DNA of 63,764 nucleotides, filler included, from Actinomycetota bacterium (GCA_046725875.1; 4 parts of 4 records of this genome joined end to end with filler, not necessarily neighbours in it), one strand, 5' to 3'; numbered from the whole stretch's first letter, positions 3,743 to 58,924 are shown. Numbers and translations are program-made. Notes: generated by a model not told the origin, from the letters alone.

Positions 3743-4432
3743 TTAAAGGTCTCCCGCTGAGATCCTTTGCCGCAACGCCGTGAGCAGGAGCACCACCGCC
3801 AGGGTCACTGCGACGCCCAAACACATGCCACCCACCACGTCTGTTAGGAGGTGCTCCGAGGTAGCCACGCGAGCCCAGGCCATGGTGAGCACCCATATGC
3901 TCCCCAGCGCAGCTACGACTGCCGACACGGACGACTGCACGACGGCGGAGCGCAGGACCAACACGAGCAAAAGGACCAGCGACGTCGCGACCGCCACTCT
4001 CCCCGATGGGTAGCTGAAGCTTTCGACCCCGAGGGAGCGGCGCCCGGCCAGCTTGATCAACATCTCAGCACCGGCCGTGGCCGGAGCTACCAGGCAAGCT
4101 GCGACAACCGCGTCCCAGCGCCGTAGCAGAGCCCAGGCTATGAGGGCAATTGCGAGGCTTCCGGCGATCACGGCCAATAGCCGCGCACTGTCATCGAGCC
4201 GGCTAGCGAATCGGTAGGGAAGTCCAGTACGGGAAACCGTCAGGACTTGGACTGCCCAGGCATCCAGTCTGCTCTGCCGAGTGCTCCACACCAGCGCGCC
4301 GATCACACTGCCCAATGCCAGGGCGAAAATCGCGACGGCCGGTGCCCACACTGGGACAAGACCGCCGGAAGGCGCTCGAGGGCGAACCCGGTCATCCAAG
4401 CCCGCCACCCCCGAGACTCCACCACGCCGCAT
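3743..4432 (-). CDS. PAP2-family membrane phosphatase (start uncertain)
   Basis: KLAGRR, SYPSGR and ARVATSEHLLTDVVGG motifs with several TM helices; PSGH is altered to PSGR. Confidence 0.8.
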   Translation of the reverse strand: MRRGGVSGVAGLDDRVRPRAPSGGLVPVWAPAVAIFALALGSVIGALVWSTRQSRLDAWAVQVLTVSRTGLPYRFASRLDDSARLLAVIAGSLAIALIAWALLRRWDAVVAACLVAPATAGAEMLIKLAGRRSLGVESFSYPSGRVAVATSLVLLLVLVLRSAVVQSSVSAVVAALGSIWVLTMAWARVATSEHLLTDVVGGMCLGVAVTLAVVLLLTALRQRISAGDL

Positions 4433-4654: not shown

Positions 4655-6652
4655 TTGGCCATCGTCGCCAGCATGCGTGGGCGTCAATCCAGCGGGTCAG
4701 TCCGCGCTGACGTCCAGGGGTTACGCGCTCTGGCTGTCCTGCTCGTCATGGCCTACCACGCCGGCCTCCCCGTGCCTGCGGGATTCGCCGGTGTCGACAT
4801 CTTCTTCGTCATCTCCGGATTCGTCATCACCGGCCTCATCCTCCGCCAAGCCGACGCCGGCCGATTCTCGCTCGCGATGTTCTACGCCCGCCGCATCAAG
4901 CGGCTATTTCCAGCGCTCATCCTCATGCTTGTCACCGTCCTCGTGCTGTCGTTCCTGCTCGAGTCGCCACTCGGCGCGCAGCAGAATACGGCTAAGACGG
5001 CGCTCGGAGCGACCATCTTCGTCGCAAACATCGTGATCGTACGAACGACCGGCGATTACTTCGACCCGGCAGCAACCACCAACCCGCTGCTACACGTGTG
5101 GACTTTGTCGGTCGAGGAACAGTTCTACCTCTGCTTCCCGACGCTCCTGCTTCTCGCGTGGGCGATCGGCCGGCGCGGCCGGGCAAACATGCGGGCGTCC
5201 GTGGTCATCGCCGTGCTGACAGGGATGAGCTTCGTCCTCGCGCTCGTCCTCACCTACGCCGATGGCCCTCTTTCGTTCGTAGACGACCCGAACGGCTGGG
5301 CTTTCTACTCCTCACCCGCGCGGGCGTGGGAGTTCGGCATCGGCGCGCTCATCGCTTTCTGGGCGCACGGCAGGGCGAGTCGCGGCAAGACCGTAGCGCG
5401 AGGGGCGGCCATGGTCGCGTTCCCGGCGATCCTGCTCATAGTCGCCGCGAATCTACTGGTGGACGACACGACCCGCTGGCCAGGTGTCGCCGCCCTACTC
5501 CCCGTCGCTGGCACCGCCGGCCTCATCCTCGCCGGTGTTCTTGGATCGAATCCGGTCTCGGGGCTCCTCTCTGTACGGCCCGCCGTTTGGGTCGGCGACC
5601 TCTCCTACAGCCTTTACCTGTGGCACTGGCCACTGATCGTCTTCGCAACTCTGCTGTGGCCCGGCGGCACGAGCAAGCTCCTGGCCGCCCTCATCTCGTT
5701 CGTGCCCGCCTGGCTCAGCTACCGCTATGTCGAAAGCCCGCTGCGCGCCGCCCCCGTCCGCTCCGTGGCCAAGGTGTTCGGCTTCGGCGGGGCGACCGCC
5801 GCGGCGACGGCCGGATTCGCGCTAGCCGTCGGTGTCCTCGGCGTAACCGCTGTACCCGACGCGGCGACCTACCGCGCGGAACGTGAAACCCTTCCCGTCG
5901 GCCGGGCTGGTGGTTGCATGATCCGTGACCATCCCTATGTCCCGAGTGACATCGATCGCTGCTACACCCGCGTCGCCCGGCCAAAGGGCTGGATCATGCT
6001 CGTTGGCGATTCTCATGCCGACGCGCTCTCCGACGGGGTCACAGCAGCGGCCCGTCACCTCGGCTACGACGTGCTCTCCCTTACCGGGGCGAGCTGCGAA
6101 TTCGCCCGTAATCCGGCGCCGTCCACCTTTGTTCCCAACTGTGCCGAGATGAACAACGACCTGCTCGATCGGGCAACCGGCAAGAATCCGCCCGGGCTCG
6201 TCATCATGTCGCATTGGAGCGCGCGTCGGATGGGAACACAAGATGACTGGCCACAGTCTCTTGGGCCCACCATTACCGAACTTCGCGAGGCCCGCATTCC
6301 CGTTCTGTTCGTGCTCGATGTGCCAAACTTCGCTGCCTGGGATGCAGGACAGCCGACACCGTGCCGCGGGGGCTTCCTGAACTTCACTTGCACGCTGTCG
6401 CGTAAGAACGTGGAGGCCATCCAGGGTCGAGCCCGAGCAGCCGAGATCGCCCTCATCCGCAACCGCCCCGGCGTAACTACCTACGATCCATGGCCGCATT
6501 TCTGCAACGCGACAGCCTGCTCGTCCGTCGTGAACGGGCGGCTCGCCTACCGGGACTTCGACCACCTCAACGCCATCGGCAGCAGCCTCCTTGCGCCCGA
6601 CCTACAGGAGGCCATACGTGCAGCGATCGGCCAGCCACACTCCGTTCGCTGA
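4655..6652 (+). CDS. OafA-like acyltransferase 3 with C-terminal SGNH domain
   Basis: RADVQGLRALAV, GVDIFFVISGF, HVWTLSVEEQFY, SYSLYLWHWP; SGNH motifs VGDSHA and YRDFDHL. Confidence 0.93.
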   Translation: MAIVASMRGRQSSGSVRADVQGLRALAVLLVMAYHAGLPVPAGFAGVDIFFVISGFVITGLILRQADAGRFSLAMFYARRIKRLFPALILMLVTVLVLSFLLESPLGAQQNTAKTALGATIFVANIVIVRTTGDYFDPAATTNPLLHVWTLSVEEQFYLCFPTLLLLAWAIGRRGRANMRASVVIAVLTGMSFVLALVLTYADGPLSFVDDPNGWAFYSSPARAWEFGIGALIAFWAHGRASRGKTVARGAAMVAFPAILLIVAANLLVDDTTRWPGVAALLPVAGTAGLILAGVLGSNPVSGLLSVRPAVWVGDLSYSLYLWHWPLIVFATLLWPGGTSKLLAALISFVPAWLSYRYVESPLRAAPVRSVAKVFGFGGATAAATAGFALAVGVLGVTAVPDAATYRAERETLPVGRAGGCMIRDHPYVPSDIDRCYTRVARPKGWIMLVGDSHADALSDGVTAAARHLGYDVLSLTGASCEFARNPAPSTFVPNCAEMNNDLLDRATGKNPPGLVIMSHWSARRMGTQDDWPQSLGPTITELREARIPVLFVLDVPNFAAWDAGQPTPCRGGFLNFTCTLSRKNVEAIQGRARAAEIALIRNRPGVTTYDPWPHFCNATACSSVVNGRLAYRDFDHLNAIGSSLLAPDLQEAIRAAIGQPHSVR

Positions 6653-6703: not shown

Positions 6704-8278
6704 CTAGGCCTTGACCAGCCGTCTGCTGTTTGACAGAACGCTTCGGACCAGATTTCGGCAGGTGCCGTAAAGCACTGCGAAGTAGACGCAGGCTCCGATG
6801 ACAAGCAGCACGACGATCAATGTGAGTCCTGCCACAGCACCGTCGAGGGCCGCCTTCGCCACCATGAGCGCGAGGAGCATCACGAGACCACTCGTCAACG
6901 GTGCGACAAAGAGGCGAAGATACCTGCCTAGGCGGATATCGAGGACCCGAGTGACCGACCAAACCGAGATCGGCGCGAGAAGATAGCCGCATACAACATA
7001 GCTTGTCGCCACCGCGAGAATGCCCCAACGAACCACCAGAATGAAACCGACGACATTGATGGCGGCAGTTAGCACGGCAACGCGGAAGGAGAGACTAGGT
7101 CGGCCGGCCGCGGTCACCATTGCCTTATTGAGATAGATGACGGCATGTGGGATCCCAACCAGGGCGAGGACCCTCATCACTGGTATGGCGTCGGCCCATT
7201 TAGTTCCGAAGGCGACGTTGATTAGCTCTGGTGTGATAACCGCCAGAGTGAGAAAGACCGGAATGGCAACAGCAAAGCAGAGCTGAGTGAGGTTGTAGAA
7301 TGCTCGCTTCGTCCGCTCGGCATCTTCATTTAGCCGGGAGAAGAGGGGAAACGCCACGCCTTCGATCGTCCAGATGATGATTTCCGTGACGATGAGCAAG
7401 ACCCGATAGGCCACAGTGTAAAGCCCTAGGGCAACGGAGCCCAGGACGAGGCCAATGAGAAAGTCATCCGAGCGACGACTCGTAAAGAGCGCCACTCTTT
7501 CCCCTAGAACGTTGGCACCGAAACGGAAGAGTCCACCGAATGTCCCGGCAGATACCTCTCGGCCCGGACGCCATGGGCACGCCAGCCACAGCACGAGAGT
7601 TCCGACGACGACGTTGGCCAACATCTGCCCGACCAGGCTCCAGACCCCGAAGCCGAGGAGAGCCATCCCGACGCCGACAGCCCCACCGGCGAATGTGCCG
7701 GCAAGTCCACGTAAAGCAACCTGGCGGAAGGCGAGCTCGCGGCGCAGCAGCGCTTGCGGGACGCTGGCGAGCGCTGCGAAGACGAACACCACCGAAAGGA
7801 CGCGCAGAACAGGCGCCAAGTCGGGCTGATCGAACGGCGCGGCGATCAGGCCCGCGCTGGCAGCCATGATGGCGGCGAGGATGGCGCCGATCGCATTATT
7901 CGCCCAGAATGCCGTGTCGAGATCGCGCGCAGATATTCGCTTGCGTTGGATCAATGCCTCGCCGAAACCAGACTCGACAAGCAGCGACAGCAGCACCACG
8001 AAAACCGACGCGAGGGCAACGGTGCCGAACGCCTCGGGGTCGAGAAGGCGAGCAAGAACGACGAAGACGAGGCTTCCGATCAGTCGCGACGAGACAGACC
8101 TCAGCACAGTCCAGCCAAGACCCCGTGCGGCCACGCCCTTGAGTCCGCCAGGCGGCGACGGCGGATGCAGCACCGACAGCCCGCCATCCGGTCCGGCGGG
8201 AACGACACGCTGGTCATCGTGAGACGACGCCCGCCTGCCGCGAGCGTGTCCGTTCCCCCTGCCTTCGCCGCCGATCAC
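6704..8278 (-). CDS. Wzx-type polysaccharide flippase (start approximate)
   Basis: LARLLDPEAFG, GFGEALIQR, GFGVWSLV, LGLYTVAYR, many TM helices; GTG preceded by GAGGGGG. Confidence 0.9.
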   Translation of the reverse strand: MIGGEGRGNGHARGRRASSHDDQRVVPAGPDGGLSVLHPPSPPGGLKGVAARGLGWTVLRSVSSRLIGSLVFVVLARLLDPEAFGTVALASVFVVLLSLLVESGFGEALIQRKRISARDLDTAFWANNAIGAILAAIMAASAGLIAAPFDQPDLAPVLRVLSVVFVFAALASVPQALLRRELAFRQVALRGLAGTFAGGAVGVGMALLGFGVWSLVGQMLANVVVGTLVLWLACPWRPGREVSAGTFGGLFRFGANVLGERVALFTSRRSDDFLIGLVLGSVALGLYTVAYRVLLIVTEIIIWTIEGVAFPLFSRLNEDAERTKRAFYNLTQLCFAVAIPVFLTLAVITPELINVAFGTKWADAIPVMRVLALVGIPHAVIYLNKAMVTAAGRPSLSFRVAVLTAAINVVGFILVVRWGILAVATSYVVCGYLLAPISVWSVTRVLDIRLGRYLRLFVAPLTSGLVMLLALMVAKAALDGAVAGLTLIVVLLVIGACVYFAVLYGTCRNLVRSVLSNSRRLVKA

Positions 8279-8346
8279 GCCGGCCCCCTCTTTACACATT
8301 TCTCGCGGCGCCAAGCAGTTCGCAGTTGCTGCCCGGGTGTGGCGTT

Positions 8347-9153
8347 CTAGGCCAGGGCTCCGGGCGTTCGCTCGCTGACCCCACTCCCCAGCTCGTCCCG
8401 CCACTTCTCAGCATCATCCCTCGGCTGGTAGCCGATGTCGCGCCGAGCGTCCTCAATGTCCCAAATACGCCAAGTATTCGCTGAAACGCCGTAGAAGATC
8501 CCGAAGACCAGGTCCTTCGGAGCGACTATGGATCGTCGTACAAGGTGTGCCATGTCGGCATGGGTGATCAACGTTGCCAGGTGCCGGGCGTTGGACGGAC
8601 GGTCTGCCCAAGTCAATGAACCGATTCGTAGGCACAACACGGACAGACCGTGCGCGTCCGCGTAGTAGCGCGCGGCCGCCTCGCCGAACGCCTTCCCCAC
8701 CCCATACGGGGTATCGGGGCGGAGGGCCATCGATGTGTCGATCTTCGGGACCATAGCGGGATCGAGGCCGTCGTATTTTCCGGCGACGATTTGCGCGTAG
8801 GGCGGATCGCGTTCGTACAGGCCGGTCACGTGGTTGGAGCTTGCGTAGATTACGCGGGACACACGACGACGGCGAGCAGCCTCGAGTACGTTCCAGGCGG
8901 CAGGAATGTTGTTGTCCCGCACAGCGTCCCACGGCTGCTGCCAATGGGCGGACGCCAGATCGATGACGACGTCAGCACCCTCGAAGGCCCTTTCCGCCTG
9001 CCTCAGGCGGGTCATATCTGCTCGCGAGACCGATCCGTGGCCCCGCCTCAGATCGACGCCAGCGACATCAAAGTCCGCTGCCAGAGCCTTCCGCAGCACC
9101 TGACCCACGAGGCCGCCTGCCCCCGTGATGATCAGGCGAGGCTTGGCACCCAT
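8347..9153 (-). CDS. NAD-dependent epimerase/dehydratase, uronate dehydrogenase-like SDR
   Basis: TGAGGLVG Rossmann motif, YASSNH, YGVGK (YxxxK), CLRIGS. Confidence 0.88.
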   Translation of the reverse strand: MGAKPRLIITGAGGLVGQVLRKALAADFDVAGVDLRRGHGSVSRADMTRLRQAERAFEGADVVIDLASAHWQQPWDAVRDNNIPAAWNVLEAARRRRVSRVIYASSNHVTGLYERDPPYAQIVAGKYDGLDPAMVPKIDTSMALRPDTPYGVGKAFGEAAARYYADAHGLSVLCLRIGSLTWADRPSNARHLATLITHADMAHLVRRSIVAPKDLVFGIFYGVSANTWRIWDIEDARRDIGYQPRDDAEKWRDELGSGVSERTPGALA

Positions 9154-9246
9154 CGGTTCTCCCAGCTCTGCACTAAACGGACCGACTTGATGCTAAACTC
9201 CGCCAGTTAGCGTGTCGTGTGGGGGCTTTGTTTTGGGGGCTTGACT

Positions 9247-9693
9247 GTGCGCTACCGCGTGAACAATCCGCAAGTGATCCACGAGATGATCGACGGCGAA
9301 GCCATCATGATCAATCTCGCTACAGGCAGCTACTACAGCCTGGACCCTGTTGCGGCCGAGGTGTGGACGTTCGTGGAGGCGTCCCAGCCTATCGATCGCA
9401 TCGTGGCGGAGCTGGATCGACGCTACGACGCCGACCCCGGCGCCATTCGCCGAGGCGTCGACGACCTGATAGAGCGGCTGTCGAGCGAGGGGCTCGTGGT
9501 TCCTTGTTCCGACGAGGAGGCCGCCCACCCGGTTGTGTCGGAGCCGGCGCCTGCCACTCGGGAGCCCTTCCGCGCGCCGCAGCTGGAAAAGTTCACGGAC
9601 ATGCAGGACCTCATCCTGCTTGATCCAGTACATGAGGTCGATTCTCGAGGGTGGCCACACCTGCCCAACGGGCAGGGGGCCACACCGCGATAG
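9247..9693 (+). CDS. PqqD-family (RiPP recognition element) protein with C-terminal extension
   Basis: DGEAIMINLATGSYYSLDPVAAEVW...LIERLSSEGLV winged-helix pattern, followed by the tail FRAPQLEKFTDMQDLILLDPVHEVDSRGWP. Confidence 0.88.
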   Translation: MRYRVNNPQVIHEMIDGEAIMINLATGSYYSLDPVAAEVWTFVEASQPIDRIVAELDRRYDADPGAIRRGVDDLIERLSSEGLVVPCSDEEAAHPVVSEPAPATREPFRAPQLEKFTDMQDLILLDPVHEVDSRGWPHLPNGQGATPR

Positions 9694-10748
9694 TGCAGTC
9701 GGCGGCGACCACCGGTCCGGGCATCGCCCAGCTCGCGGCCGCGTTCGATGAGGCGTTGGCGCGTACCCAACTCCAAGAACACCTGCTTCTAATGGGCGGG
9801 CATCAGGTCCTGATCCGCTTCGCCGGTCCTGGTGCCGTCCCATCGATCCTGCCTGCCTTTGCCCACCTGGCTGCCGCGAGGGATCGCAGACCGGAGCTCG
9901 TCGTCGACGTCTGGGATGCTGCATCGACTGGTGTTCCCGCCCCGCCGCATCCAGAGGTGGACCCACACTCACCGCCAGGCGCTTTTTACTACTTCGAGGA
10001 CCCTCCCCTGCGCGGCGTTTACCAGCCGGGCTTTCGGGCCCTCAGCGCGATAGATCTCGGCAGCGATCGTGCATGGTATTGCGTCGCCGACCCAGCTGAC
10101 CTGCCGTACTGGGAACGAGCGGCACCGATCCGGCAGATTCTGCACTGGTGGATGGCCAGCCGTGGCCACCAGCAGGTCCACGCCGGGGCGGTGGGCATGC
10201 CTGACGGGGGCGTCCTCCTCGTCGGAAAGGGCGGTTCGGGGAAGTCAACCTGTTCGCTCATCTCGCTCACCTCCGTCCTGCGCTACGCGGGCGACGACTA
10301 CACGATGGTGAGCATCGGGCGGCGTCCCTGGGTACACAGTCTCTTCAGCTCGGGAAAGGTCCATCCGGAGAATCTTTGGCGCATGCCCCACCTCCGGTCG
10401 GCTTTGTCGAATGGTGATCGCCTCGCGACCGAGAAGGCTGTCGTCTTTGTGGACCAGCATTTCCCCGACCGGCCGATCGACGGGTTTCCGCTGCAGGCCA
10501 TCCTGCTTCCGACGATCACTGGCGGCAGGCACACCCGGACGGTTGAGGTCACTCGAGCGGCCGCTCTCGCGGCATTAGCTCCCAGCACCGTCTTCCAACT
10601 GCATACGGCCGGCCGGGAGGCGCTGCAGTTCATGGCTCGCCTAGTGCGGGACGTACCGGCATATGCGCTCGAGCTCGGCTCCAACGTCTCTGAGGTTCCA
10701 GATGTGATCCTGACCCTACTGGACCGGCTAAGGCAGGATGTGGCATGA
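9693..10748 (+). CDS. HPr kinase-related P-loop kinase
   Basis: VHAGAV, Walker A GKGGSGKST, AGDDY; the GTG start overlaps the PqqD stop (TAGTG). Confidence 0.85.
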   Translation: MQSAATTGPGIAQLAAAFDEALARTQLQEHLLLMGGHQVLIRFAGPGAVPSILPAFAHLAAARDRRPELVVDVWDAASTGVPAPPHPEVDPHSPPGAFYYFEDPPLRGVYQPGFRALSAIDLGSDRAWYCVADPADLPYWERAAPIRQILHWWMASRGHQQVHAGAVGMPDGGVLLVGKGGSGKSTCSLISLTSVLRYAGDDYTMVSIGRRPWVHSLFSSGKVHPENLWRMPHLRSALSNGDRLATEKAVVFVDQHFPDRPIDGFPLQAILLPTITGGRHTRTVEVTRAAALAALAPSTVFQLHTAGREALQFMARLVRDVPAYALELGSNVSEVPDVILTLLDRLRQDVA

Positions 10749-11458
10749 CGAGACCGCTCGTCACTGTAATCGTCGCGGTCCACAATGGAGAGCGATATCT
10801 TCGGCTCGCTCTAGAGAGTCTCTTCGAACAGGATTACGATCCATTCGAAGTCGTATTCGTCGACGACGGTTCGACCGACGATAGCGCCGCCATTGCCCGA
10901 ACCTTCCCGAGTATTCGCTACGTCTACCAGGAAAACCAGGGACTGGCCGCCGCTCGTAACACAGGTCTCTCATTGGCGCGGGGAGAATTTCTCGCTTACC
11001 TTGACGACGACGATCTGATACCGCCACATAAGCTGGGTCGTCAATCCGATTACCTCATAGCCAATCCGGATGTTGGTTGCGTATTAGCGCGCCAGGAGAT
11101 CTTGCTCGAACCAGGCGTCGAGCCTCCGGAATGGCTGAGCCGCGACCCGATCTTCGGCGATCTTGACGGGATCCCGCTCGTGTCTGCGATGATCCGGACC
11201 AAGGTGCTGCGCGAGGTCGGCGGGTTCGACGTGAGTTATCGCTTCGCCGAGGATCGTGATCTGTTCGTACGACTCAGGGAGCACGGCGTGCGGGTGGACG
11301 TCATACCGGAGGTCCTGCTGTTTCGCCGGTTCCATGGCGAGAACATGAACTTCCGCCTGCGGCCTGCCAAACACCCGCTGCTTCGGTCGCTCAAGGCAAA
11401 GATCGATCGCGAGCGGGCGGCCGACAGCGCAGAGGATCGGGGGCATCGTGGGGATTGA
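10745..11458 (+). CDS. Glycosyltransferase family 2
   Basis: VIVAVHNGERYL, VDDGSTD, AARNTG, YLDDDD, AEDRDL; ATGA overlap with the kinase stop. Confidence 0.93.
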   Translation: MTRPLVTVIVAVHNGERYLRLALESLFEQDYDPFEVVFVDDGSTDDSAAIARTFPSIRYVYQENQGLAAARNTGLSLARGEFLAYLDDDDLIPPHKLGRQSDYLIANPDVGCVLARQEILLEPGVEPPEWLSRDPIFGDLDGIPLVSAMIRTKVLREVGGFDVSYRFAEDRDLFVRLREHGVRVDVIPEVLLFRRFHGENMNFRLRPAKHPLLRSLKAKIDRERAADSAEDRGHRGD

Positions 11459-12200
11459 CCGCTGCCTCATCTCCGTCATGATCCCCGTTTACAACGGTGA
11501 GGCGTATCTGGGTGAGGCCATCGACAGCGTACTGGAGCAGTCATACCATCCGATTGAGATCATCGTCGTCGACGATGGCTCGACCGATGGCACGGACAGT
11601 GTCGCACTCGGCTACGCCGGCGACGTTCGCTACGAACGACAGCCGCGGGCTGGTAACGGCGCCGCCCGCAACCGAGCCGTCCAGTTGGCGAACGGCGATC
11701 TTTTTGCCTTCCTCGACGCCGACGACCGCCTCGTGCCCGGTTCGCTCGAGCGACTGGCGCGCGTGCTTGAGGAGGACCAGTCTCTGCAGGCCGTGTACGG
11801 GCACGTACGGGAGTTCGTGAGCCCGGACATCGATGCCGAGGACCTTGCCCGGCTGCGAGCACCAATCGCAAGGATCGCTGGCTGCCTGCCGACCAACATG
11901 CTGATGCGTCGCGACGCCTTCCGCCGGGTCGGTCGGTTCGCTACGCATCTGCGGGTTGGGGTCACAGTCGACTGGGCGGCGCGAGCGGACGAGATTGGAC
12001 TGCGCAAGATCCTCCTCGACGACGTGTTGTTCGAGCGGCGGCTCCACGGCGACAACAACGGCATCCGGGAGCGAGAGCATCGCAGTCACTACATCCAGGT
12101 CGTCAAGGCCGCCCTCGACCGACGTCGGGCCCTGCAACAGTCGGGATCTGCCCGGACCCTAGACGATGCGGCCTCGTCGCAGCCACAAGAGCGGGACTGA
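11448..12200 (+). CDS. Glycosyltransferase family 2
   Basis: VMIPVYNGEAYL, VDDGSTD, AARNRA, FLDADD. Confidence 0.93.
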   Translation: MGIDRCLISVMIPVYNGEAYLGEAIDSVLEQSYHPIEIIVVDDGSTDGTDSVALGYAGDVRYERQPRAGNGAARNRAVQLANGDLFAFLDADDRLVPGSLERLARVLEEDQSLQAVYGHVREFVSPDIDAEDLARLRAPIARIAGCLPTNMLMRRDAFRRVGRFATHLRVGVTVDWAARADEIGLRKILLDDVLFERRLHGDNNGIREREHRSHYIQVVKAALDRRRALQQSGSARTLDDAASSQPQERD

Positions 12201-12201
12201 T

Positions 12202-13377
12202 ATGAAACGGGCCGGTTTCACCGGTGACATCTGGCCGGATGAGACACAGGAATTACTTCTGCGCTCCGCGCTTCTGCCAGGCCCGGCCGGAACAGCCGCC
12301 TGGTCCGCGCTCCGCCCCAGCATTGACATCGACCATCTGCCAGGTGAGCTCCATCGCCTCATCCCTCTTCTCTCCAAGTCCCTTGCTTCGCATGGGATCA
12401 ACGATCCGGACCTTCCGCGCTTGAAGGGCGTCTACCAGTTCTCCTGGTATCGCAATCAGCGCCTCTTCGCCGACGGCGCAGCATTCCTGGGAGCGTTGGA
12501 CGCTGCTGGGGTTCCCACGATGCTTCTCCGGGGCGCCGCAATGACCATCGCTTATCACGGCGATGTGGGTACGCGACCGATGAACGACCTCGACGTCCTG
12601 CTGCCGGCCGACCAGCTAGACAAGGGTCGGCGTGTAGCGGAGGCCATAGGCTGGTCGCGTTATGCGGAATCCAGGACGCTCGAGCAGCGCGAGGCCGCGA
12701 CGATTCTCAGGAACCAGGACGGGCGCCTGATGCGGCTCCACTGGTCGGCGAGCCGCAATGTGCCGACGCCGGTGGGATTGGAGCACCCAATATGGAGGCG
12801 GGCAACCCAAATCCAGTTCGGCAATACCATCACATGTGTGCCGGGCTCCGCCGACCACTTCGTCTATGCCTGCCTGGACGGGGCACGAGCCAACTCCGGG
12901 TCGACGTTGCGGTGGATCACGGACGCCACTGTCCTCCTGCGTTCGGCGCGTGACCTCGACTGGGACGTCGTAGTGGGGGAGGCGCGTCGACACCGCGTCT
13001 CGCTACTAATCTCCGAGGCGCTGCGCTATCTGGTCGATGTACTCGACGCAGAGGTCCCGAGCGGTCCGATCGAGGCGCTACGCGCGACTCCGGCGACAGC
13101 CCGCGACCGGATCGCCCACCGCCTCAGCCTGACAACGAGTCCTGGTCTCCCTTCTGCCGCCGAGCTACTCGGCCGGTTCACTCGCCTCACCGCTGACCTT
13201 CCGCTGTCGGCGGCGGTCGGTACGCTGCCCGCTTTCCTTCAGACCACGCTCGGAGTGCCACGCCGCCGGGACGTGCCGATAGCCATCGCCCGGAAAGCGA
13301 TTAAGGCCGTGGCGTCCCCCCCGCGTTCGCTCGCGGAGCTCTCGAGGGCCGGACCACCTAGGTCGGGCAGGAAATAG
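12202..13377 (+). CDS. Nucleotidyltransferase (NTP_transf_5-like), copy 1
   Basis: LLRGAA, RPMNDLDVLL, RLHW, RWITDA. Confidence 0.85.
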   Translation: MKRAGFTGDIWPDETQELLLRSALLPGPAGTAAWSALRPSIDIDHLPGELHRLIPLLSKSLASHGINDPDLPRLKGVYQFSWYRNQRLFADGAAFLGALDAAGVPTMLLRGAAMTIAYHGDVGTRPMNDLDVLLPADQLDKGRRVAEAIGWSRYAESRTLEQREAATILRNQDGRLMRLHWSASRNVPTPVGLEHPIWRRATQIQFGNTITCVPGSADHFVYACLDGARANSGSTLRWITDATVLLRSARDLDWDVVVGEARRHRVSLLISEALRYLVDVLDAEVPSGPIEALRATPATARDRIAHRLSLTTSPGLPSAAELLGRFTRLTADLPLSAAVGTLPAFLQTTLGVPRRRDVPIAIARKAIKAVASPPRSLAELSRAGPPRSGRK

Positions 13378-13378
13378 C

Positions 13379-14611
13379 GTGCGGCAGCAGATCGGCACGG
13401 TTGGTCCGCACCCCGCCTTGATCGAGGTCGCGGCTGGTCGCGGCCTGCCGGTCGTGCCTGATCCGCTGCCGCTGGTGCGCTCGGCGCTCGCGCATGGCAT
13501 GGGGGGTCTCCTCCTCACTGAGGTGGAACAAACGGGCCAGCCATGGCATCGGCTTACCCTGGCTGCGCTCACCGCCAGGCAGGCAAAGGTTCGGGCCTGG
13601 CACGAGCGGCTGTGGGATACCTCGACCCGCATCGCCGCCGTCTTTGACGATCTCGCTGTCGAGGTAGCTATCGCGAAGGGAGTCGCGGCGGAGACACGGT
13701 GGTACACCCGGATGGGTGAGCGGCCGTGCAGCGACATCGATCTCCTCCTGTCGCCGGCACACGTCGCTCGCATCGACGACGTGGTGGCCGCGATCGAGCC
13801 GCGGCACCCACTTTGTGGAAAGGTCCGCCGACTGGCCGAGCGCGGACTCCTCCAATCGATCGATCTCGAGTACGACGGCGTTCCTATCGACTTGCACTGG
13901 GACATCTTCAAGCTTGGGGTTCCGTCACGGAACGTAGAGGCGATCTGGGACCGGACGGTGCCATTCGCTCTCCGCGACGGCCGCTCGATTCGGGCGCTCG
14001 ACGCCACATCGTCCTACATCCACTTCCTCATCCATCTGAACAAGGATCGCTTCAGGCGACTGCTGGGATTTGTCGACGCGGCTCGGGTATATGCGAGCGA
14101 TCAGGTGGATCATTCCGCCGTCGATCGGCTGATTCGGGCCGACGGGATCGAGACCAGCGTCAGCGCCTCCTGGGAGGTCGTGATTCGCACACTCGACCTG
14201 TCCGTTCCGAACCAGATCAAGCGCCAGCCGGTCAGGTCCCTCATATGGCATCTTGCCTGGCGTCCATCGGTTAGGCTGCGTGCGGCCGAGTCGACCGTCC
14301 GCTTTCGCCATCGCCAATGGCTGATTGCAGCGCTAAGCCGGGGCAGGGCTATGGAGGCGGCTAGGTCCTGGATACGGGGACGGTTCCCACCAGGCGAGCT
14401 GTTGGCTTATGTCCATTCTGGCTATGCGACCCGCTGGGGGGGCGAGCCGGTATCGACCTCCCGCCGATCCCGTATCTGGTCACTGACCGTGGGCCGCCTG
14501 ATGGCGGCGCTTGGCAGACGGCGACACCTTGCTCAGGTGACCGGCCCTGCCGGGACCAGACGGCCGGGAGCAGACGATGGGAGGCCGCGCCGCAGCCGAG
14601 GCGCACCGTAG
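13379..14611 (+). CDS. Nucleotidyltransferase (NTP_transf_5-like), copy 2
   Basis: IAKGVA, RPCSDIDLLL, IDLHW, LLGFVDA. Confidence 0.85.
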   Translation: MRQQIGTVGPHPALIEVAAGRGLPVVPDPLPLVRSALAHGMGGLLLTEVEQTGQPWHRLTLAALTARQAKVRAWHERLWDTSTRIAAVFDDLAVEVAIAKGVAAETRWYTRMGERPCSDIDLLLSPAHVARIDDVVAAIEPRHPLCGKVRRLAERGLLQSIDLEYDGVPIDLHWDIFKLGVPSRNVEAIWDRTVPFALRDGRSIRALDATSSYIHFLIHLNKDRFRRLLGFVDAARVYASDQVDHSAVDRLIRADGIETSVSASWEVVIRTLDLSVPNQIKRQPVRSLIWHLAWRPSVRLRAAESTVRFRHRQWLIAALSRGRAMEAARSWIRGRFPPGELLAYVHSGYATRWGGEPVSTSRRSRIWSLTVGRLMAALGRRRHLAQVTGPAGTRRPGADDGRPRRSRGAP

Positions 14612-14669: not shown

Positions 14670-15461
14670 CTAGAGAACGGCCGCGAGGTGCGCCAGAAGC
14701 AAGTCACCGAGCTCGTGTCGGCACACAAGCAAGTCCGGTAGAGCGGGGTTCACCTGGTTATAGGAAAGCTCGGAGGCATCGATCCGGGAGACGTGAAGAC
14801 CGGCGGCGAGGGCGACGGCAACCGGGGCAGCAGAGTCCCATTCGTACTGACCGCCGGCATGGATGTAGGCGTCTGCCGCGCCAGTGATCACTGCACCGAC
14901 TTTGGCGCCGGCCGAACCCATTGGGACAAGCTCGGCGCCGAGTTCGCCCGCGACGGCCTCGATGAACCGGGGCGGTCGGGTGCGGCTGACGGTTATCCGC
15001 AACAGTCGCTCGGGTTCGCGCCGCGGTGCAATCTGGGGCGGGCCAGCGGTCGAAAGGGTGAGTCCTTGCGCCGGCAGGGCAACCGCTCCCGCCACGAGTC
15101 CGCCCTCGTGCGCTCCTGCCGGCATCGCGGAATGGCCCTCGAAGCCGCCCCGTACCCAGAGCGCAACATGGACGGCCCAATCGGTGCGCCCGGACTCGCC
15201 GTACTCGCGCGTCCCATCCAGCGGATCGATGATCCATACACGGTCGGCTGTGAGCCGGCGCGGATCGTCCTTGCCTTCTTCAGACAGGATCGCGTCCCGG
15301 GGGCGGGCCGCGGCCAGTTCGGCCATCAAGAGCTCGTGCGACTCGCGATCCCCGGCCTTGCCAAGATCCTCCACGTCATCCCGTTGGCGCAGGGCGAGCA
15401 AGCGACGCCCAGCCTCCGCGGCCAGGTCGCATGCGAGCAGATGATCTTCACGACGGGGCAT
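14670..15461 (-). CDS. cysQ: 3'(2'),5'-bisphosphate nucleotidase CysQ
   Basis: [28 protein letters not shown]; lies directly downstream of cysDN. Confidence 0.92.
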   Translation of the reverse strand: MPRREDHLLACDLAAEAGRRLLALRQRDDVEDLGKAGDRESHELLMAELAAARPRDAILSEEGKDDPRRLTADRVWIIDPLDGTREYGESGRTDWAVHVALWVRGGFEGHSAMPAGAHEGGLVAGAVALPAQGLTLSTAGPPQIAPRREPERLLRITVSRTRPPRFIEAVAGELGAELVPMGSAGAKVGAVITGAADAYIHAGGQYEWDSAAPVAVALAAGLHVSRIDASELSYNQVNPALPDLLVCRHELGDLLLAHLAAVL

Positions 15462-15526: not shown

Positions 15527-16858
15527 CTAACCGATGATCATGCCGGCGGCGACTGTGCCGTTGGTGACCTCGTCGATGAGGATGAATCCGCCGGTCTGGC
15601 GATTCCGGGAGTACGCGTCGGAAAGCAGCGGCTGGGTAGTCCGCAGCCGGATTCGCCCGATGTCGTTCAACCCAAGCTGGGTGACGCTCTCCTCGCGATG
15701 GAGGGTGTTGACGTCAAGCCGGTAGGCGAACTCCTTGACCAGTGCTCGCACGGAACGAGTGGTGTGCTTGAGCACATACTTTCCGCCCGCCGTGAGCACC
15801 CGCCGGTCGTCCATCCAGCACACCATCGCGTCGATGTCTTGGATGACATCCGGCTGGTTGCCGGGCCGGCAGATCATGTCGCCGCGCGAGATGTCGATTT
15901 CATCGTCGAGCCGCAACACGACCGACATCGGCGGGTACGCTTCCTCGACCGGCCCATCGGCCGTGTCGATGCCGACGATCCGACTGGTGTAGCCAGATGG
16001 GAGCAACAAGACCTCGTCGCCCGGTTTCAGCACACCGCCCGCCACCGTGCCCGCATAGCCGCGATAGTCCGGAAACGCCGAGGACTTCGGTCGGATGACG
16101 TACTGCACCGGAAAGCGCACGTCAACCAGGTTCCGGTCTGAGGTGATGTGTACCTGTTCCAGATGCGACAGCAGCGACGGGCCCTCGTACCAGGGCATGT
16201 TCGCGGATCCGTCGACCACGTTGTCGCCGTGCAGCGCGCTGATCGGAATGACGGCGAGGTCGGGCACGGCGAGTCGGGCCGCAAAGCTCTCGAACTCCGC
16301 GCTGATCTCCTCGAAGACCTCGGGCGACCAGCCGACCAGATCCATCTTGTTGATACAGAGCACGATGTGCGGCACCCGCAGCAGCGAAACCAGGAAGGCG
16401 TGCCGGCGGCTCTGCTCGACCAGGCCCTTCCGCGCGTCCACCAGGATGATCGCAAGGTCGGCGGTAGATGCGCCGGTGACCATGTTGCGGGTGTACTGCT
16501 GGTGCCCGGGGGTGTCAGCGATGATGAACTTCCGCCGCGGGGTGGCGAAATACCGGTACGCGACATCGATCGTGATGCCTTGCTCCCGCTCCGCGCGCAG
16601 GCCGTCGGTGAGCAGCGCCAGGTCCGTGTAGTCGTCGCCGCGCTCCCGGCTGGTTCGTTCCACCGCGTCGAGCTGGTCCTCGAAGATCGACTTCGAGTCG
16701 TACAGTAGCCGGCCGATCAGCGTGCTCTTGCCGTCGTCGACCGAGCCCGCCGTCGCGAAGCGCAGGATGTCGTGGCGCCGCCCCCAGCGGCCGGACTCGA
16801 CCGGGTCAGCGGACACCGAAAAGTCGGACAGCTCCGACGAGCCAGGCAGCAGGGTCAT
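15527..16858 (-). CDS. cysN: Sulfate adenylyltransferase subunit 1, without a fused APS kinase
   Basis: TAGSVDDGKSTLIGRLL, AEREQGITIDVAYRYF, DTPGH, NKMD; ends at VAAGMIIG. Confidence 0.96.
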   Translation of the reverse strand: MTLLPGSSELSDFSVSADPVESGRWGRRHDILRFATAGSVDDGKSTLIGRLLYDSKSIFEDQLDAVERTSRERGDDYTDLALLTDGLRAEREQGITIDVAYRYFATPRRKFIIADTPGHQQYTRNMVTGASTADLAIILVDARKGLVEQSRRHAFLVSLLRVPHIVLCINKMDLVGWSPEVFEEISAEFESFAARLAVPDLAVIPISALHGDNVVDGSANMPWYEGPSLLSHLEQVHITSDRNLVDVRFPVQYVIRPKSSAFPDYRGYAGTVAGGVLKPGDEVLLLPSGYTSRIVGIDTADGPVEEAYPPMSVVLRLDDEIDISRGDMICRPGNQPDVIQDIDAMVCWMDDRRVLTAGGKYVLKHTTRSVRALVKEFAYRLDVNTLHREESVTQLGLNDIGRIRLRTTQPLLSDAYSRNRQTGGFILIDEVTNGTVAAGMIIG

Positions 16859-17766
16859 CAGAAGTAGCCCTCCCGCTTGCGGTCCTCCATTGCTGCCTCG
16901 GACGTTCGGTCGTCCGCCCTGGTTGCCCCGCGTTCGGTGATCCGCGTCGCGGCAACCTCCTGGATCACCTCGGCGATGGTCGACGCGGACGAGAGCACGG
17001 CACCTGTGCAGGACATGTCCCCGACCGTCCGAAACCGCACCATGCTCGTCGAGACCGGCTCACCCTCCCGCGGGCGCACATGCTCACCGACCGCCAGCAG
17101 CATGCCGTCGCGTTCGACGACCTCCCGCTGATGCGCGAAGTAGATCCGCGGCAGCTCGATCCCCTCGCGCTCGATGTACTGCCAGATGTCCAGCTCGGTC
17201 CAGTTGGACAACGGGAAAACCCGGATGTGTTCGCCCGGATGGATCCGTCCGTTATAGATGTCCCATAGCTCCGGCCGCTGGTTCTTTGGGTCCCACTGTC
17301 CAAACTCATCCCGGAATGAGAAGAACCGCTCCTTCGCTCGGGCCTTCTCCTCGTCCCGGCGGGCGCCGCCGAAGAGCGCATCGAACCTGTACCCCTCGAT
17401 CGCCTCGAGCAGCACGGGCGTCTGCAGCCGGTTGCGGCCGGCCGGATCCCGGGACTCCGCGAGCCGGCCGGCGCGGATCGCCTCGTCTACGGAGGCCACG
17501 ACCAGCCGGACCCCAAGGTCCCGCACCCGCCCGTCACGGAAGTCCAGGACTTCAGGGAAGTTGTGACCGGTGTCCACATGCAGCACTGCGAACGGGATCG
17601 GCGCCGGCCAGAACGCCTTTGCCGCGACATGCAGCAGCACGGCCGAGTCCTTGCCACCGGAGAAGAGCAGTGCCGGGCGCTCGAACTCGGCGGCCACCTC
17701 CCGGATCACATGGATGGCCTCCGACTCGAGCACGTCCAGCTGACTGAGCCGATAGTCAATGCGCAC
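16858..17766 (-). CDS. cysD: Sulfate adenylyltransferase subunit 2
   Basis: LFSGGKDS, DTGHNFPE, GGARRDEEKARAKER, MEDRKREGYF. Confidence 0.96.
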   Translation of the reverse strand: MRIDYRLSQLDVLESEAIHVIREVAAEFERPALLFSGGKDSAVLLHVAAKAFWPAPIPFAVLHVDTGHNFPEVLDFRDGRVRDLGVRLVVASVDEAIRAGRLAESRDPAGRNRLQTPVLLEAIEGYRFDALFGGARRDEEKARAKERFFSFRDEFGQWDPKNQRPELWDIYNGRIHPGEHIRVFPLSNWTELDIWQYIEREGIELPRIYFAHQREVVERDGMLLAVGEHVRPREGEPVSTSMVRFRTVGDMSCTGAVLSSASTIAEVIQEVAATRITERGATRADDRTSEAAMEDRKREGYF

Positions 17767-17994
17767 CTGATCCCCGATCCGAGCTAATTCTGGTCGCGTC
17801 GCCGCACGAGGCTCGATCCCGCTGCTCACCCCGCCGTGGCGGTGACGCGCAAGTCCCCGATAGTACGGGGGAGCCCACAGGCGCGGAAATCGTACGGCAA
17901 CGGGCCCGGCAAGTATGGCCGAACGCGAGCGTTTCCGGCTACGCATAGTAAGAACGGGCGCGAAAGGATAATGGGCGTAGTCGGTGGGAGTCCA

Positions 17995-31977: not shown

Positions 31978-32077
31978 NNNNNNNNNNNNNNNNNNNNNNN
32001 NNNNNNNNNNNNNNNNNNNNNTTAATTAATTAANNNNNNNNNNNNNNNNNNNNNNNNNNNNNNNNNNNNNNNNNNNN
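31978..32077. other. Artificial contig linker
   Basis: N44-TTAATTAATTAA-N44, with stops in all six frames. Confidence 0.98.
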
Positions 32078-51127: not shown

Positions 51128-51227
51128 NNNNNNNNNNNNNNNNNNNNNNNNNNNNNNNNNNNNNNNNNNNNTTAATTAATTAANNNNNNNNNNNNNNNNN
51201 NNNNNNNNNNNNNNNNNNNNNNNNNNN
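51128..51227. other. Artificial contig linker
   Basis: N44-TTAATTAATTAA-N44. Confidence 0.98.
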
Positions 51228-58824: not shown

Positions 58825-58924
58825 NNNNNNNNNNNNNNNNNNNNNNNNNNNNNNNNNNNNNNNNNNNNTTAATTAATTAANNNNNNNNNNNNNNNNNNNN
58901 NNNNNNNNNNNNNNNNNNNNNNNN
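58825..58924. other. Artificial contig linker
   Basis: N44-TTAATTAATTAA-N44. Confidence 0.98.

Follow-up and report, generated by a model that had tools for sequence, protein, structure and literature searches.

A six-gene cassette in a 63,764-nucleotide stretch of DNA from an Actinomycetota bacterium (GCA_046725875.1; the whole stretch is referred to here as the window) combines enzymes of the lasso-peptide tailoring type with two glycosyltransferases, and related cassettes recur in many bacteria as a conserved unit without a lasso cyclase. [quoted passage not shown] Here we describe a large family in which the RRE itself bears both a strand resembling a leader and an invariant motif; it is coupled, in some cases by fusion, to a kinase, and is accompanied by glycosyltransferases. 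Our preferred reading, to which we assign a probability of roughly 0.45, is that the cassette is a self-standing, cyclase-less, RRE-guided module for phospho- and glyco-tailoring, related to tailoring sets of the paeninodin type and to the linear polyphosphorylated peptide (LPP) family. The cassette occupies window positions 9247-14611, on a contig (contig C14 of the assembly) that makes up window positions 1-31977. Its six plus-strand genes encode the RRE, a kinase, two family 2 glycosyltransferases (GT2s) and two nucleotidyltransferases (NTases) of Pfam family PF14907:

9247..9693, plus strand: tailed RRE, 148 aa (Pfam PqqD PF05402, E 3.7e-14)
9651..10748, plus strand: P-loop kinase assigned to the phosphoenolpyruvate carboxykinase (PEPCK)/HPrK superfamily, two-domain, 365 aa as longest open reading frame (ORF)
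10745..11458, plus strand: GT2a, a small soluble glycosyltransferase, 237 aa (PF00535, E 3.3e-33)
11448..12200, plus strand: GT2b, a second small glycosyltransferase, 250 aa (PF00535, E 4e-35)
12202..13377, alternative start 12166, plus strand: NT1, a PsmN/LppN-type nucleotidyltransferase-fold protein (PF14907, NTP_transf_5, E 2.6e-32)
13379..14611, plus strand: NT2, a second PF14907 nucleotidyltransferase-fold protein (E 1.3e-23)

A first-pass annotation of the window had proposed an RRE-kinase-GT2-GT2-NTase-NTase cassette at this place, and its coordinates, strand and tight junctions were borne out. The longest ORF of the RRE gene begins at 9217; the GTG codon at 9247 is favoured as the start by homologues of ~147 aa. 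With a GTG start at 9651, the kinase gene overlaps the RRE gene by 43 nt. The kinase and GT2a genes share an ATGA overlap, GT2a and GT2b overlap by 11 nt, and spacers of 1 bp separate GT2b from NT1 (with an ATG at 12202) and NT1 from NT2. The NT1 sequence holds NDLDVLL, taken as a DxD signature, and NT2 holds SDIDLLL.

Relatives of the cassette were collected by a pattern scan in which each species was represented by a single genome; it yielded 97 RRE relatives, and 80 loci were kept. Genes were counted by tblastn with the window's proteins, in all 80 loci and in a well-flanked subset of 48 loci, each of which has 5 kb or more of sequence to its left and right. This analysis revealed a kinase within 6 kb of the RRE in 78/80 loci, both misses lying at contig ends, and in 48/48 well-flanked loci; in 67/80 loci the kinase gene was directly downstream of the RRE gene on the same strand. 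At least one GT2 was present in 74/80 loci (48/48 well-flanked) and at least two in 49/80 (34/48 well-flanked). A PF14907 NTase was detected in 53/80 loci (40/48 well-flanked), which is a lower bound from tblastn; divergent PF14907 copies missed by tblastn were recovered by Pfam, upstream in the L053/L061/L067 group. The second PF14907 copy seen by tblastn in 4/80 loci is likewise an undercount, as Pfam finds more copies. An Azf-like short-chain dehydrogenase/reductase (SDR) was the commonest accessory gene (28/80 loci; 21/48 well-flanked), and Wzx was found in 11/80 loci (8/48 well-flanked). The locus labels, taken from record titles, span about a dozen phylum-level groups: Actinomycetota (Gaiellaceae, Acidimicrobiia, Solirubrobacterales), Binatia, a 'Deltaproteobacteria' metagenome-assembled genome (MAG), Verrucomicrobiota, Cyanobacteria, Chloroflexota, Gemmatimonadota, Acidobacteriota, Bacteroidota, Planctomycetota, and Alpha- and Gammaproteobacteria. 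Cultured Kaistia, Dongia and Aquibium strains are among the proteobacterial carriers. The RRE-kinase-GT2 cassette is conserved as a unit, and it is so without a cyclase. The first-pass expectation that kinase, GT2, NTase and Wzx genes would travel together held for the kinase, the GT2 and mostly the NTase, but not for Wzx, given its presence in only 8/48 well-flanked loci.

ORFs at the 80 loci were called by a greedy longest-ORF procedure and clustered, and Pfam was run on selected sets: 55 representatives (clusters 5-59, each present in at least two loci), 105 ORFs of at least 430 aa, and 24 inserted or unexplained ORFs. To arrive at the 105 large ORFs, 258 unannotated ORFs (380 aa or longer) were passed through a third-position GC filter, applied where loci were GC-rich, and through the length cut. 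No Asn-synthetase-like cyclase, transglutaminase-like protease or any other peptidase was found among the Pfam-screened ORFs of the three sets. Recurrent extra genes encoded PF14907 proteins, GT1/GT4, GT2_4 and GT32-/GT47-like enzymes, methyltransferases, MsbA-like and ABC-2 transporters, Wzz/BY-kinase, Wzy_C, sortase, LuxR regulators and sulfotransferases. Genes inserted inside cassettes elsewhere encoded glycosyltransferases, methyltransferases, a deacetylase and MsbA-like exporters, and no peptidases; MsbA-like ABC exporters (ABC_membrane plus ABC_tran, cluster 10) lay within or beside the cassette in 7/80 loci. We also screened 1,345 small-ORF candidates from the 80 loci and the window, none of which was a conserved precursor-like ORF. 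The top small-ORF families were ruled out as precursors, being antisense shadows of the RRE gene or lineage-specific. In the window itself, the ORF list and a reading of the sequence left no space for a precursor gene in the 93-bp intergenic region upstream of the cassette or inside the cassette. A small single-pass membrane protein (...SWLGVALAVGT[IL]VGH.IA.G...), not precursor-like, is encoded 3' of the cassette in four Gaiellaceae-type loci (L004:15732-16037, L013:6119-6241, L017:15891-16058, L046:15896-16054).

The organism's own assembly (3.76 Mb, 197 contigs, 89% complete, in which absences are not absolute) was then searched for lasso and other RiPP machinery. It gave 0 matches to Asn_synthase (PF00733, the lasso cyclase family), a search whose control was positive in 11/14 genomes, and 0 matches to Transglut_core3 (PF13471, the B2 leader peptidase). 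AsnB-type asparagine synthetase is thus also seemingly absent or unassembled in this assembly. The tailed RRE was the only PqqD gene. Nine radical SAM matches were found in the assembly, none of them on the cassette's contig. No signal peptidase I of the archaeal type (SpI; TIGR02228) scored over the cut-off in the assembly, the best match reaching 21 bits against 51.85 on another contig, and no MsbA-like ABC exporter adjoined the cassette in the window by Pfam. The earlier description of lasso-type accessory proteins without a cyclase, a B2 protease or a separate precursor was therefore upheld both in this genome and in the 80 loci, where the unit is conserved with none of the three nearby. 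The outcome that the first-pass annotation had named as refuting its idea thus did not occur.

In the tailed RRE protein, a variable linker joins the winged-helix RRE (~residues 1-84) to an [FY]xxPxL strand; the invariant motif comes next, and the protein's end is short and variable. It has 471 close homologues of ~147 aa, and a profile built from 58 diverse RREs retrieved 1,386 cluster representatives at E ≤ 1e-30 (among 1.84 billion). AlphaFold2 modelled the N-terminal ~85 residues as a lasso B1 RRE; the top Foldseek match was TbiB1 (5v1v_A, E 2.9e-6, TM 0.91 on target), with 6jx3_B also matched, and the NCBIfam lasso_PqqD models fell below cut-off. The two elements that follow the linker are located as follows:

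9565..9585, plus strand: leader-like motif P-F-x-x-P-x-L, residues 107-113, then the strand LEKF (113-116)
9598..9657, plus strand: invariant tail motif D-M-Q-D-L-I-L-L-D-P-V-H-E-V-D-S-R-G-W-P, residues 118-137

Within the leader-like motif, P111 was kept in 55/58 sequences, L113 in 52/58, and F or Y at position 108 in 51/58 (alignment A2). This [FY]xxPxL element is similar to [Y/W]xxPx[L/V/I], the motif that the RREs of lasso and LPP systems read in leaders. AlphaFold2 gave predicted local distance difference test (pLDDT) values of 84-92 at residues 101-120 and a strand at 113-116. The strand is probably an intrinsic cis occupant of the leader site that packs on the RRE, leaving that site self-occupied; its docking site was placed from model confidence and secondary structure only.

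The invariant motif follows the family consensus D-M-Q-D-L-x-L-L-D-P-V-H-E-V-D-x-x-G-W-P, with D118, L125, D126, P127, H129, V131 and D132 invariant in 58/58 sequences and G135, W136 and P137 in 57/57. The mean top-residue frequency reached 0.88 over residues 118-137, whereas the RRE domain had 0.52 and the linker 0.29. No other part of the protein is as well conserved as the tail, and the first-pass annotation was right to focus on it. AlphaFold2 predicted residues 121-148 to be disordered (pLDDT 41-56), and in the model of a natural RRE-kinase fusion the YxxPxL block reached pLDDT 91 and the invariant motif 40-42; on these models we read the motif as a flexible functional element. Tandem forms with two or three RRE units (~270-400 aa) accounted for 20 of the best 150 profile matches, and proteins with three RRE units and a kinase also exist (~780-850 aa). 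In the tandem forms a PFxxPx-hydrophobic stretch follows every RRE unit, and the full invariant motif is present on one unit only. A separately encoded tail peptide was ruled out, since only four short proteins, all fragment-like, were found among 5.8 billion sequences. A word-indexed search scored no longer fused forms; this search is weak, and fusions were found by other means.

The structural and family matches of the RRE also bear on the view that the cassette is a decayed lasso cluster, left over after loss of the cyclase, protease and precursor. Lasso B1 proteins are indeed the best matches of the RRE, as such a history would predict, but the same set, without a cyclase inside the 10-kb flanks and with intact catalytic motifs and tight junctions, was present in all 48 well-flanked loci, which bear some dozen labels of phylum rank. 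The invariant tail and the 1,386 cluster representatives at E ≤ 1e-30 contradict decay as well, and we regard it as highly improbable.

No Pfam family matched the kinase. Its match to the NCBIfam model HprK_rel_A covered residues 164-222 and was weak (E 1.9e-7; 30.5 bits against a 200-bit cut-off). The kinase His, the P-loop GKGGSGKS (residues 192-199; nt 10224-10247) and a GDD signature aligned to HPrK/P 1knx, and residues H177, G192, G195, G197, K198, D216 and K262 were invariant in 32 homologues (alignment A3). Foldseek analysis of the kinase of a fused homologue returned ATP-PEPCK 1j3b_B (E 6.1e-10, ~390 aligned columns), HPrK/P 1ko7_A (E 1.2e-5) and 1knx_D. From the weak family match, the conserved His, P-loop and DD residues, and the modelled fold, the kinase is assigned to the PEPCK/HPrK superfamily.

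To our knowledge, no complex of an RRE with an HprK-like kinase has been solved. In-frame fusion of RRE-tail and kinase was seen in 11/80 loci, which belong to Planctomycetota, Cyanobium and two MAGs, one of Gemmatimonadota and one labelled Sphingobacterium. Prediction of the complex of the separate RRE and kinase gave an ipSAE of 0.81 in each of three runs, and the best of three controls gave 0.01. The mark used for this score, which is reached by 116/157 solved complexes and 2/215 mismatched pairs, is roughly applicable here, as our own alignments were used. The runs shared at least 44% of contacts, with a partner pLDDT of at least 76. In the confident interface, RRE sheet-face residues 8-31 meet kinase residues 301-333 (C-terminal helices); it is also predicted to include residues 193-194 of the kinase P-loop and, from the tail, residues 116, 118-119 and 122-123. 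The model supports binding of the RRE to the kinase, and its agreement with gene adjacency and in-frame fusion argues for coupling of the two proteins. Docking of the invariant motif (residues 125-137) on the kinase was not adopted, the motif being confident neither in the fused model nor in the complex contacts.

The closest described system is LPP, a cyclase-less family of Bacillota with an RRE, an HprK-like kinase and an NTP transferase (genes LppA/K/B/S/D/N; Popov et al. 2026, PMC13381572). The first-pass annotation knew of no characterised example; the LPP report does describe such a set. According to that report, LPP clusters often lie inside capsule or exopolysaccharide loci and are restricted to Bacillota, and the final product and its role are not established (PMC13381572). 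LPP and the cassette are alike in a discrete lasso-type RRE, an HprK-like kinase, a PF14907-type NTP transferase, the lack of a macrolactam cyclase and a [Y/W]xxP-type RRE-binding motif, and embedding in polysaccharide loci is frequent in LPP. The LPP core described there further holds a separate precursor (leader YxxPxVLxHQxIxFETxxS), an archaeal-type SpI (LppS) and an MsbA-like exporter. In contrast, the cassette is without a separate precursor and without SpI, and has an exporter in only seven loci. Polyphosphorylation of a core-peptide Ser by the kinase is a further mark of LPP, and the RRE tail keeps no conserved Ser. It also differs in its obligatory one to three GT2 genes, in the fusion of [FY]xxPxL and the 20-residue invariant motif to the RRE, in the occasional fusion of the RRE to the kinase, and in its occurrence in Actinomycetota and many Gram-negative phyla rather than Bacillota. 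Because three LPP core features (peptidase, precursor, exporter) failed and GT2s, the tailed RRE and RRE-kinase fusions are added, we class the cassette as a variant related to LPP and not as an LPP member.

The shared RRE, HprK-like kinase and PF14907 core, and the MsbA-like exporters found in or beside the cassette in seven loci, would suit an ordinary LPP-like RiPP pathway whose precursor lies elsewhere or is too short or divergent to be recognized; a leader bound in trans would then displace the tail, and the tail would regulate access. Short or divergent precursor genes could evade a small-ORF screen. However, none of the 1,345 candidates was a conserved small ORF and the window's cassette has no internal space for one, no SpI scored over the cut-off in the organism's own genome, and no peptidase was seen among the recurrent or inserted genes. 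A cis [FY]xxPxL strand is, moreover, kept after every RRE unit. We consider such a hidden precursor quite unlikely.

Other systems resemble the cassette in part. It shares with the paeninodin and pseudomycoidin clusters a B1-type RRE fold, an HprK-like kinase signature and a PF14907-type protein; it differs from them in having no cyclase, B2 protease or precursor, here or in the related loci. HprK-related kinase A/B systems (TIGR04352, TIGR04355) and SynChlorMet (SCM; ScmC/ScmD) likewise pair a PqqD-family protein with an HprK-related kinase and are so far defined as protein families only, although the matches of our kinase to TIGR04352/TIGR04355 and of our RRE to ScmD were weak and far below the family cut-offs. 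Those systems are tied to other partners, radical SAM enzymes in the case of SCM, none of which lies near the cassette. Look-alike clusters in Protein Atlas carry ScmC or Hpr_kinase_C on 11-43% of their members, which serves as a lead only. The cassette or its motif was not found described in the literature searched, the supplementary tables of the LPP paper lying outside that search. HprK, RRE and glycosyltransferase occurred together in the LPP paper only, and PF14907 only in an unrelated phosphonate survey. The elements new here are the [FY]xxPxL strand, the invariant tail motif, the RRE-kinase fusions and the complex model.

Under our preferred reading of an RRE-guided tailoring module, the RRE β-sheet face would bind the C-terminal helices of the kinase and bring tail residues 116-123 to the interface with the kinase P-loop. 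The later steps are proposed from precedent: in the pseudomycoidin and paeninodin work, PsmK and PadeK phosphorylate lasso precursors at a C-terminal Ser, and the addition of one or two hexoses to the product of that step depends on PsmN (PMC6993621). By analogy, the kinase would phosphorylate an acceptor presented by the RRE-kinase complex, the PsmN-like NTase(s) would cap the phosphate with a sugar, and the GT2s would extend that sugar, joined in other loci by further glycosyltransferases and methyltransferases. The product would be a cytoplasmically assembled, phosphate-linked glycoconjugate, and it probably stays on its carrier, since the conserved gene set holds no peptidase. The element LLDPVHEVDxxGWP could be what is recognized or modified, or could serve the GT2/NTase enzymes as a docking peptide.

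The best candidate for the acceptor in this organism would be Thr117 of the RRE tail, which adjoins the invariant Asp118 and lies inside the segment that touches the kinase in the model. The residue before the invariant Asp was S or T in 162/185 family sequences, a sample dominated by close actinobacterial sequences. D or E occupied the position in 7 of the 23 exceptions, which is compatible with phosphomimicry. Among Dongia-group sequences the position reads Y-E or F-V, the Y-E forms counting among the D/E exceptions. The Kaistia and Dongia kinases in alignment A3, which left out the fused planctomycete kinases, keep the His, P-loop and DD residues despite the non-phosphorylatable position. 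Because non-S/T residues occur there in members whose kinases keep their catalytic residues, Thr117 was ruled out as a family-wide acceptor and was kept as a candidate for this organism only. No other hydroxyl residue of the tail is conserved. The acceptor is perhaps the tail, at sites that differ between members, or else a different protein or a glycan.

Several points weigh against the tailoring-module reading. The tail has no Ser or Thr that all members share, and the residues before the invariant Asp are Y-N in the planctomycete fused forms and F-G in the Kaistia/Aquibium group. It is unusual for the 'core' of a RiPP product to be conserved this strongly. Even in the kinase fusion, the pLDDT of the invariant LLDPVHEVDxxGWP does not rise above 40-56, and this element is absent from the confident contacts. 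The kinase matches HprK models weakly and its fold is at least as PEPCK-like as HPrK/P-like, which does not fix its substrate class. The absences at the loci rest on ORF-filtered screens and, for the organism itself, on an 89%-complete genome. Every enzymatic step is drawn by analogy, and LppN was inactive in the only LPP reconstitution reported (PMC13381572).

A different acceptor is at the centre of the main alternative, namely that the module decorates a glycan or a lipid-linked intermediate, such as a Wzx-dependent repeat unit, with phosphate-linked sugars, the tailed RRE acting as scaffold or adaptor and not as substrate. This arrangement would explain why, in the window and at several loci, the cassette sits among genes for a priming glycosyltransferase, Wzx, Wzy_C, Wzz/BY-kinase, AT3 and PAP2, and why the inserted accessory genes are all carbohydrate-active. 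The PEPCK-like fold of the kinase (PEPCK enzymes act on small molecules), the lack of a universal Ser/Thr in the RRE tail and the seemingly self-filled leader groove of the RRE in the models fit it too, as do the recurrent sulfotransferases nearby, one of them fused to PF14907 in L063. Yet Wzx was nearby in only 8/48 well-flanked loci, and many loci (for instance in Alphaproteobacteria and Planctomycetota) had no obvious lipid-linked glycan machinery within 10 kb. We also know of no role for an RRE in glycan synthesis. Where relatives of the kinase-NTase pair have been characterised, their substrates are peptides. We regard glycan decoration as possible, if on the unlikely side.

A more far-reaching idea is that the tailed RRE combines a precursor and the element recognizing it in one protein. 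Its cis leader-like strand would present the invariant tail to the bound kinase, and the tail, or Thr117 next to it, would be phosphorylated, then sugar-capped and extended by the PsmN-like NTases and GT2s to give a carrier or primer for a phosphate-linked glycan. We hold this to be unlikely. If true, it would amount to a protein phosphoglycosylation or protein-primed glycan system present over many phyla, and we know of no such bacterial system that has been described. The first-pass annotation had argued for a repurposed RiPP-like system building a phosphoglycan on a peptide or protein carrier, or modifying or regulating the exported polysaccharide; the cyclase-less conserved unit stood, and a phosphoglycan on such a carrier is conjectural. 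The one candidate phospho-acceptor in the tail, Thr117, is not conserved in distant members whose kinases keep all catalytic residues. More generally, an acceptor in the protein itself would make this a new kind of bacterial phospho-glyco modification, and a glycan acceptor would give an RRE a role outside RiPP biosynthesis. In either case the logic of LPP would extend beyond Bacillota. The family also offers a handle on the function of PF14907 enzymes, through T117, D118, H129 and the GWP motif and through the cultured Kaistia and Dongia carriers.

The surroundings of the cassette in the window were examined with Pfam and NCBIfam, and the flippase, acyltransferase, priming glycosyltransferase and cysDNQ genes that had been annotated around it are real:

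1478-2968: Bac_transf priming glycosyltransferase (Pfam/NCBIfam)
3743-4432, minus strand: PAP2 (Pfam/NCBIfam)
4655-6652: AT3-SGNH (Pfam/NCBIfam)
6704-8404, minus strand: Wzx-type flippase (Pfam/NCBIfam)
8347..9153, minus strand: SDR, Epimerase family, Azf-like, divergently transcribed (PF01370, E 4.8e-21)
9154..9246, no strand: divergent intergenic region, 93 bp, between the SDR/Wzx genes and the cassette
14670-15461, minus strand: CysQ-like (below NCBIfam cut-off)
15527-16858, minus strand: CysN (Pfam/NCBIfam)
16858-17946, minus strand: CysD (Pfam/NCBIfam)

The best NCBIfam match of the SDR was Azf, an NAD-dependent glucose-6-phosphate dehydrogenase (E 1.2e-41, below cut-off), which hints at action on a sugar phosphate. 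The first-pass annotation had listed cysDNQ among the flanking genes. They do not accompany the cassette elsewhere: tblastn found cysD, cysN or cysQ in 0/80 loci (0/48 well-flanked), and these genes were ruled out as a system component. Sulfotransferases recur near cassettes at other loci (L063:15920-18037, L060:14581-15330, L061:15451-16158, L006:20009-20440 and L049:3400-4977); the L063 protein is a Sulfotransfer_3-NTP_transf_5 fusion and that of L049 an arylsulfotransferase. With sulfotransferases elsewhere and cysD, cysN and cysQ-like genes here, the module may have some connection to sulfation.

Further observations concern individual loci. A sortase gene adjoins the tailed RRE in seven actinobacterial loci (L017:9192-10025, minus strand; L004, L007, L008, L009, L015 and L032). 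Actinobacterial RRE tails often end in ...GWPHLP[DE]G..., which is loosely like a sorting signal and is not conserved across phyla. Some loci carry a second, more divergent RRE-kinase pair or a whole second cassette (L031:16191-17873, minus strand; L051:1982-4828, minus strand), and split tblastn matches at L042:12522-12945 may mark a frameshifted second RRE copy. The window as a whole joins at least four contigs, with paired runs of N at 31978-32077, 51128-51227 and 58825-58924. Within it, third-position GC was 0.67-0.78 in the Wzx, SDR and cassette genes (6704-14611), compared with 0.81-0.87 in cysN, cysD and a histidine kinase gene. The lower values would fit the unusual composition often seen where loci are transferred or encode surface glycans.

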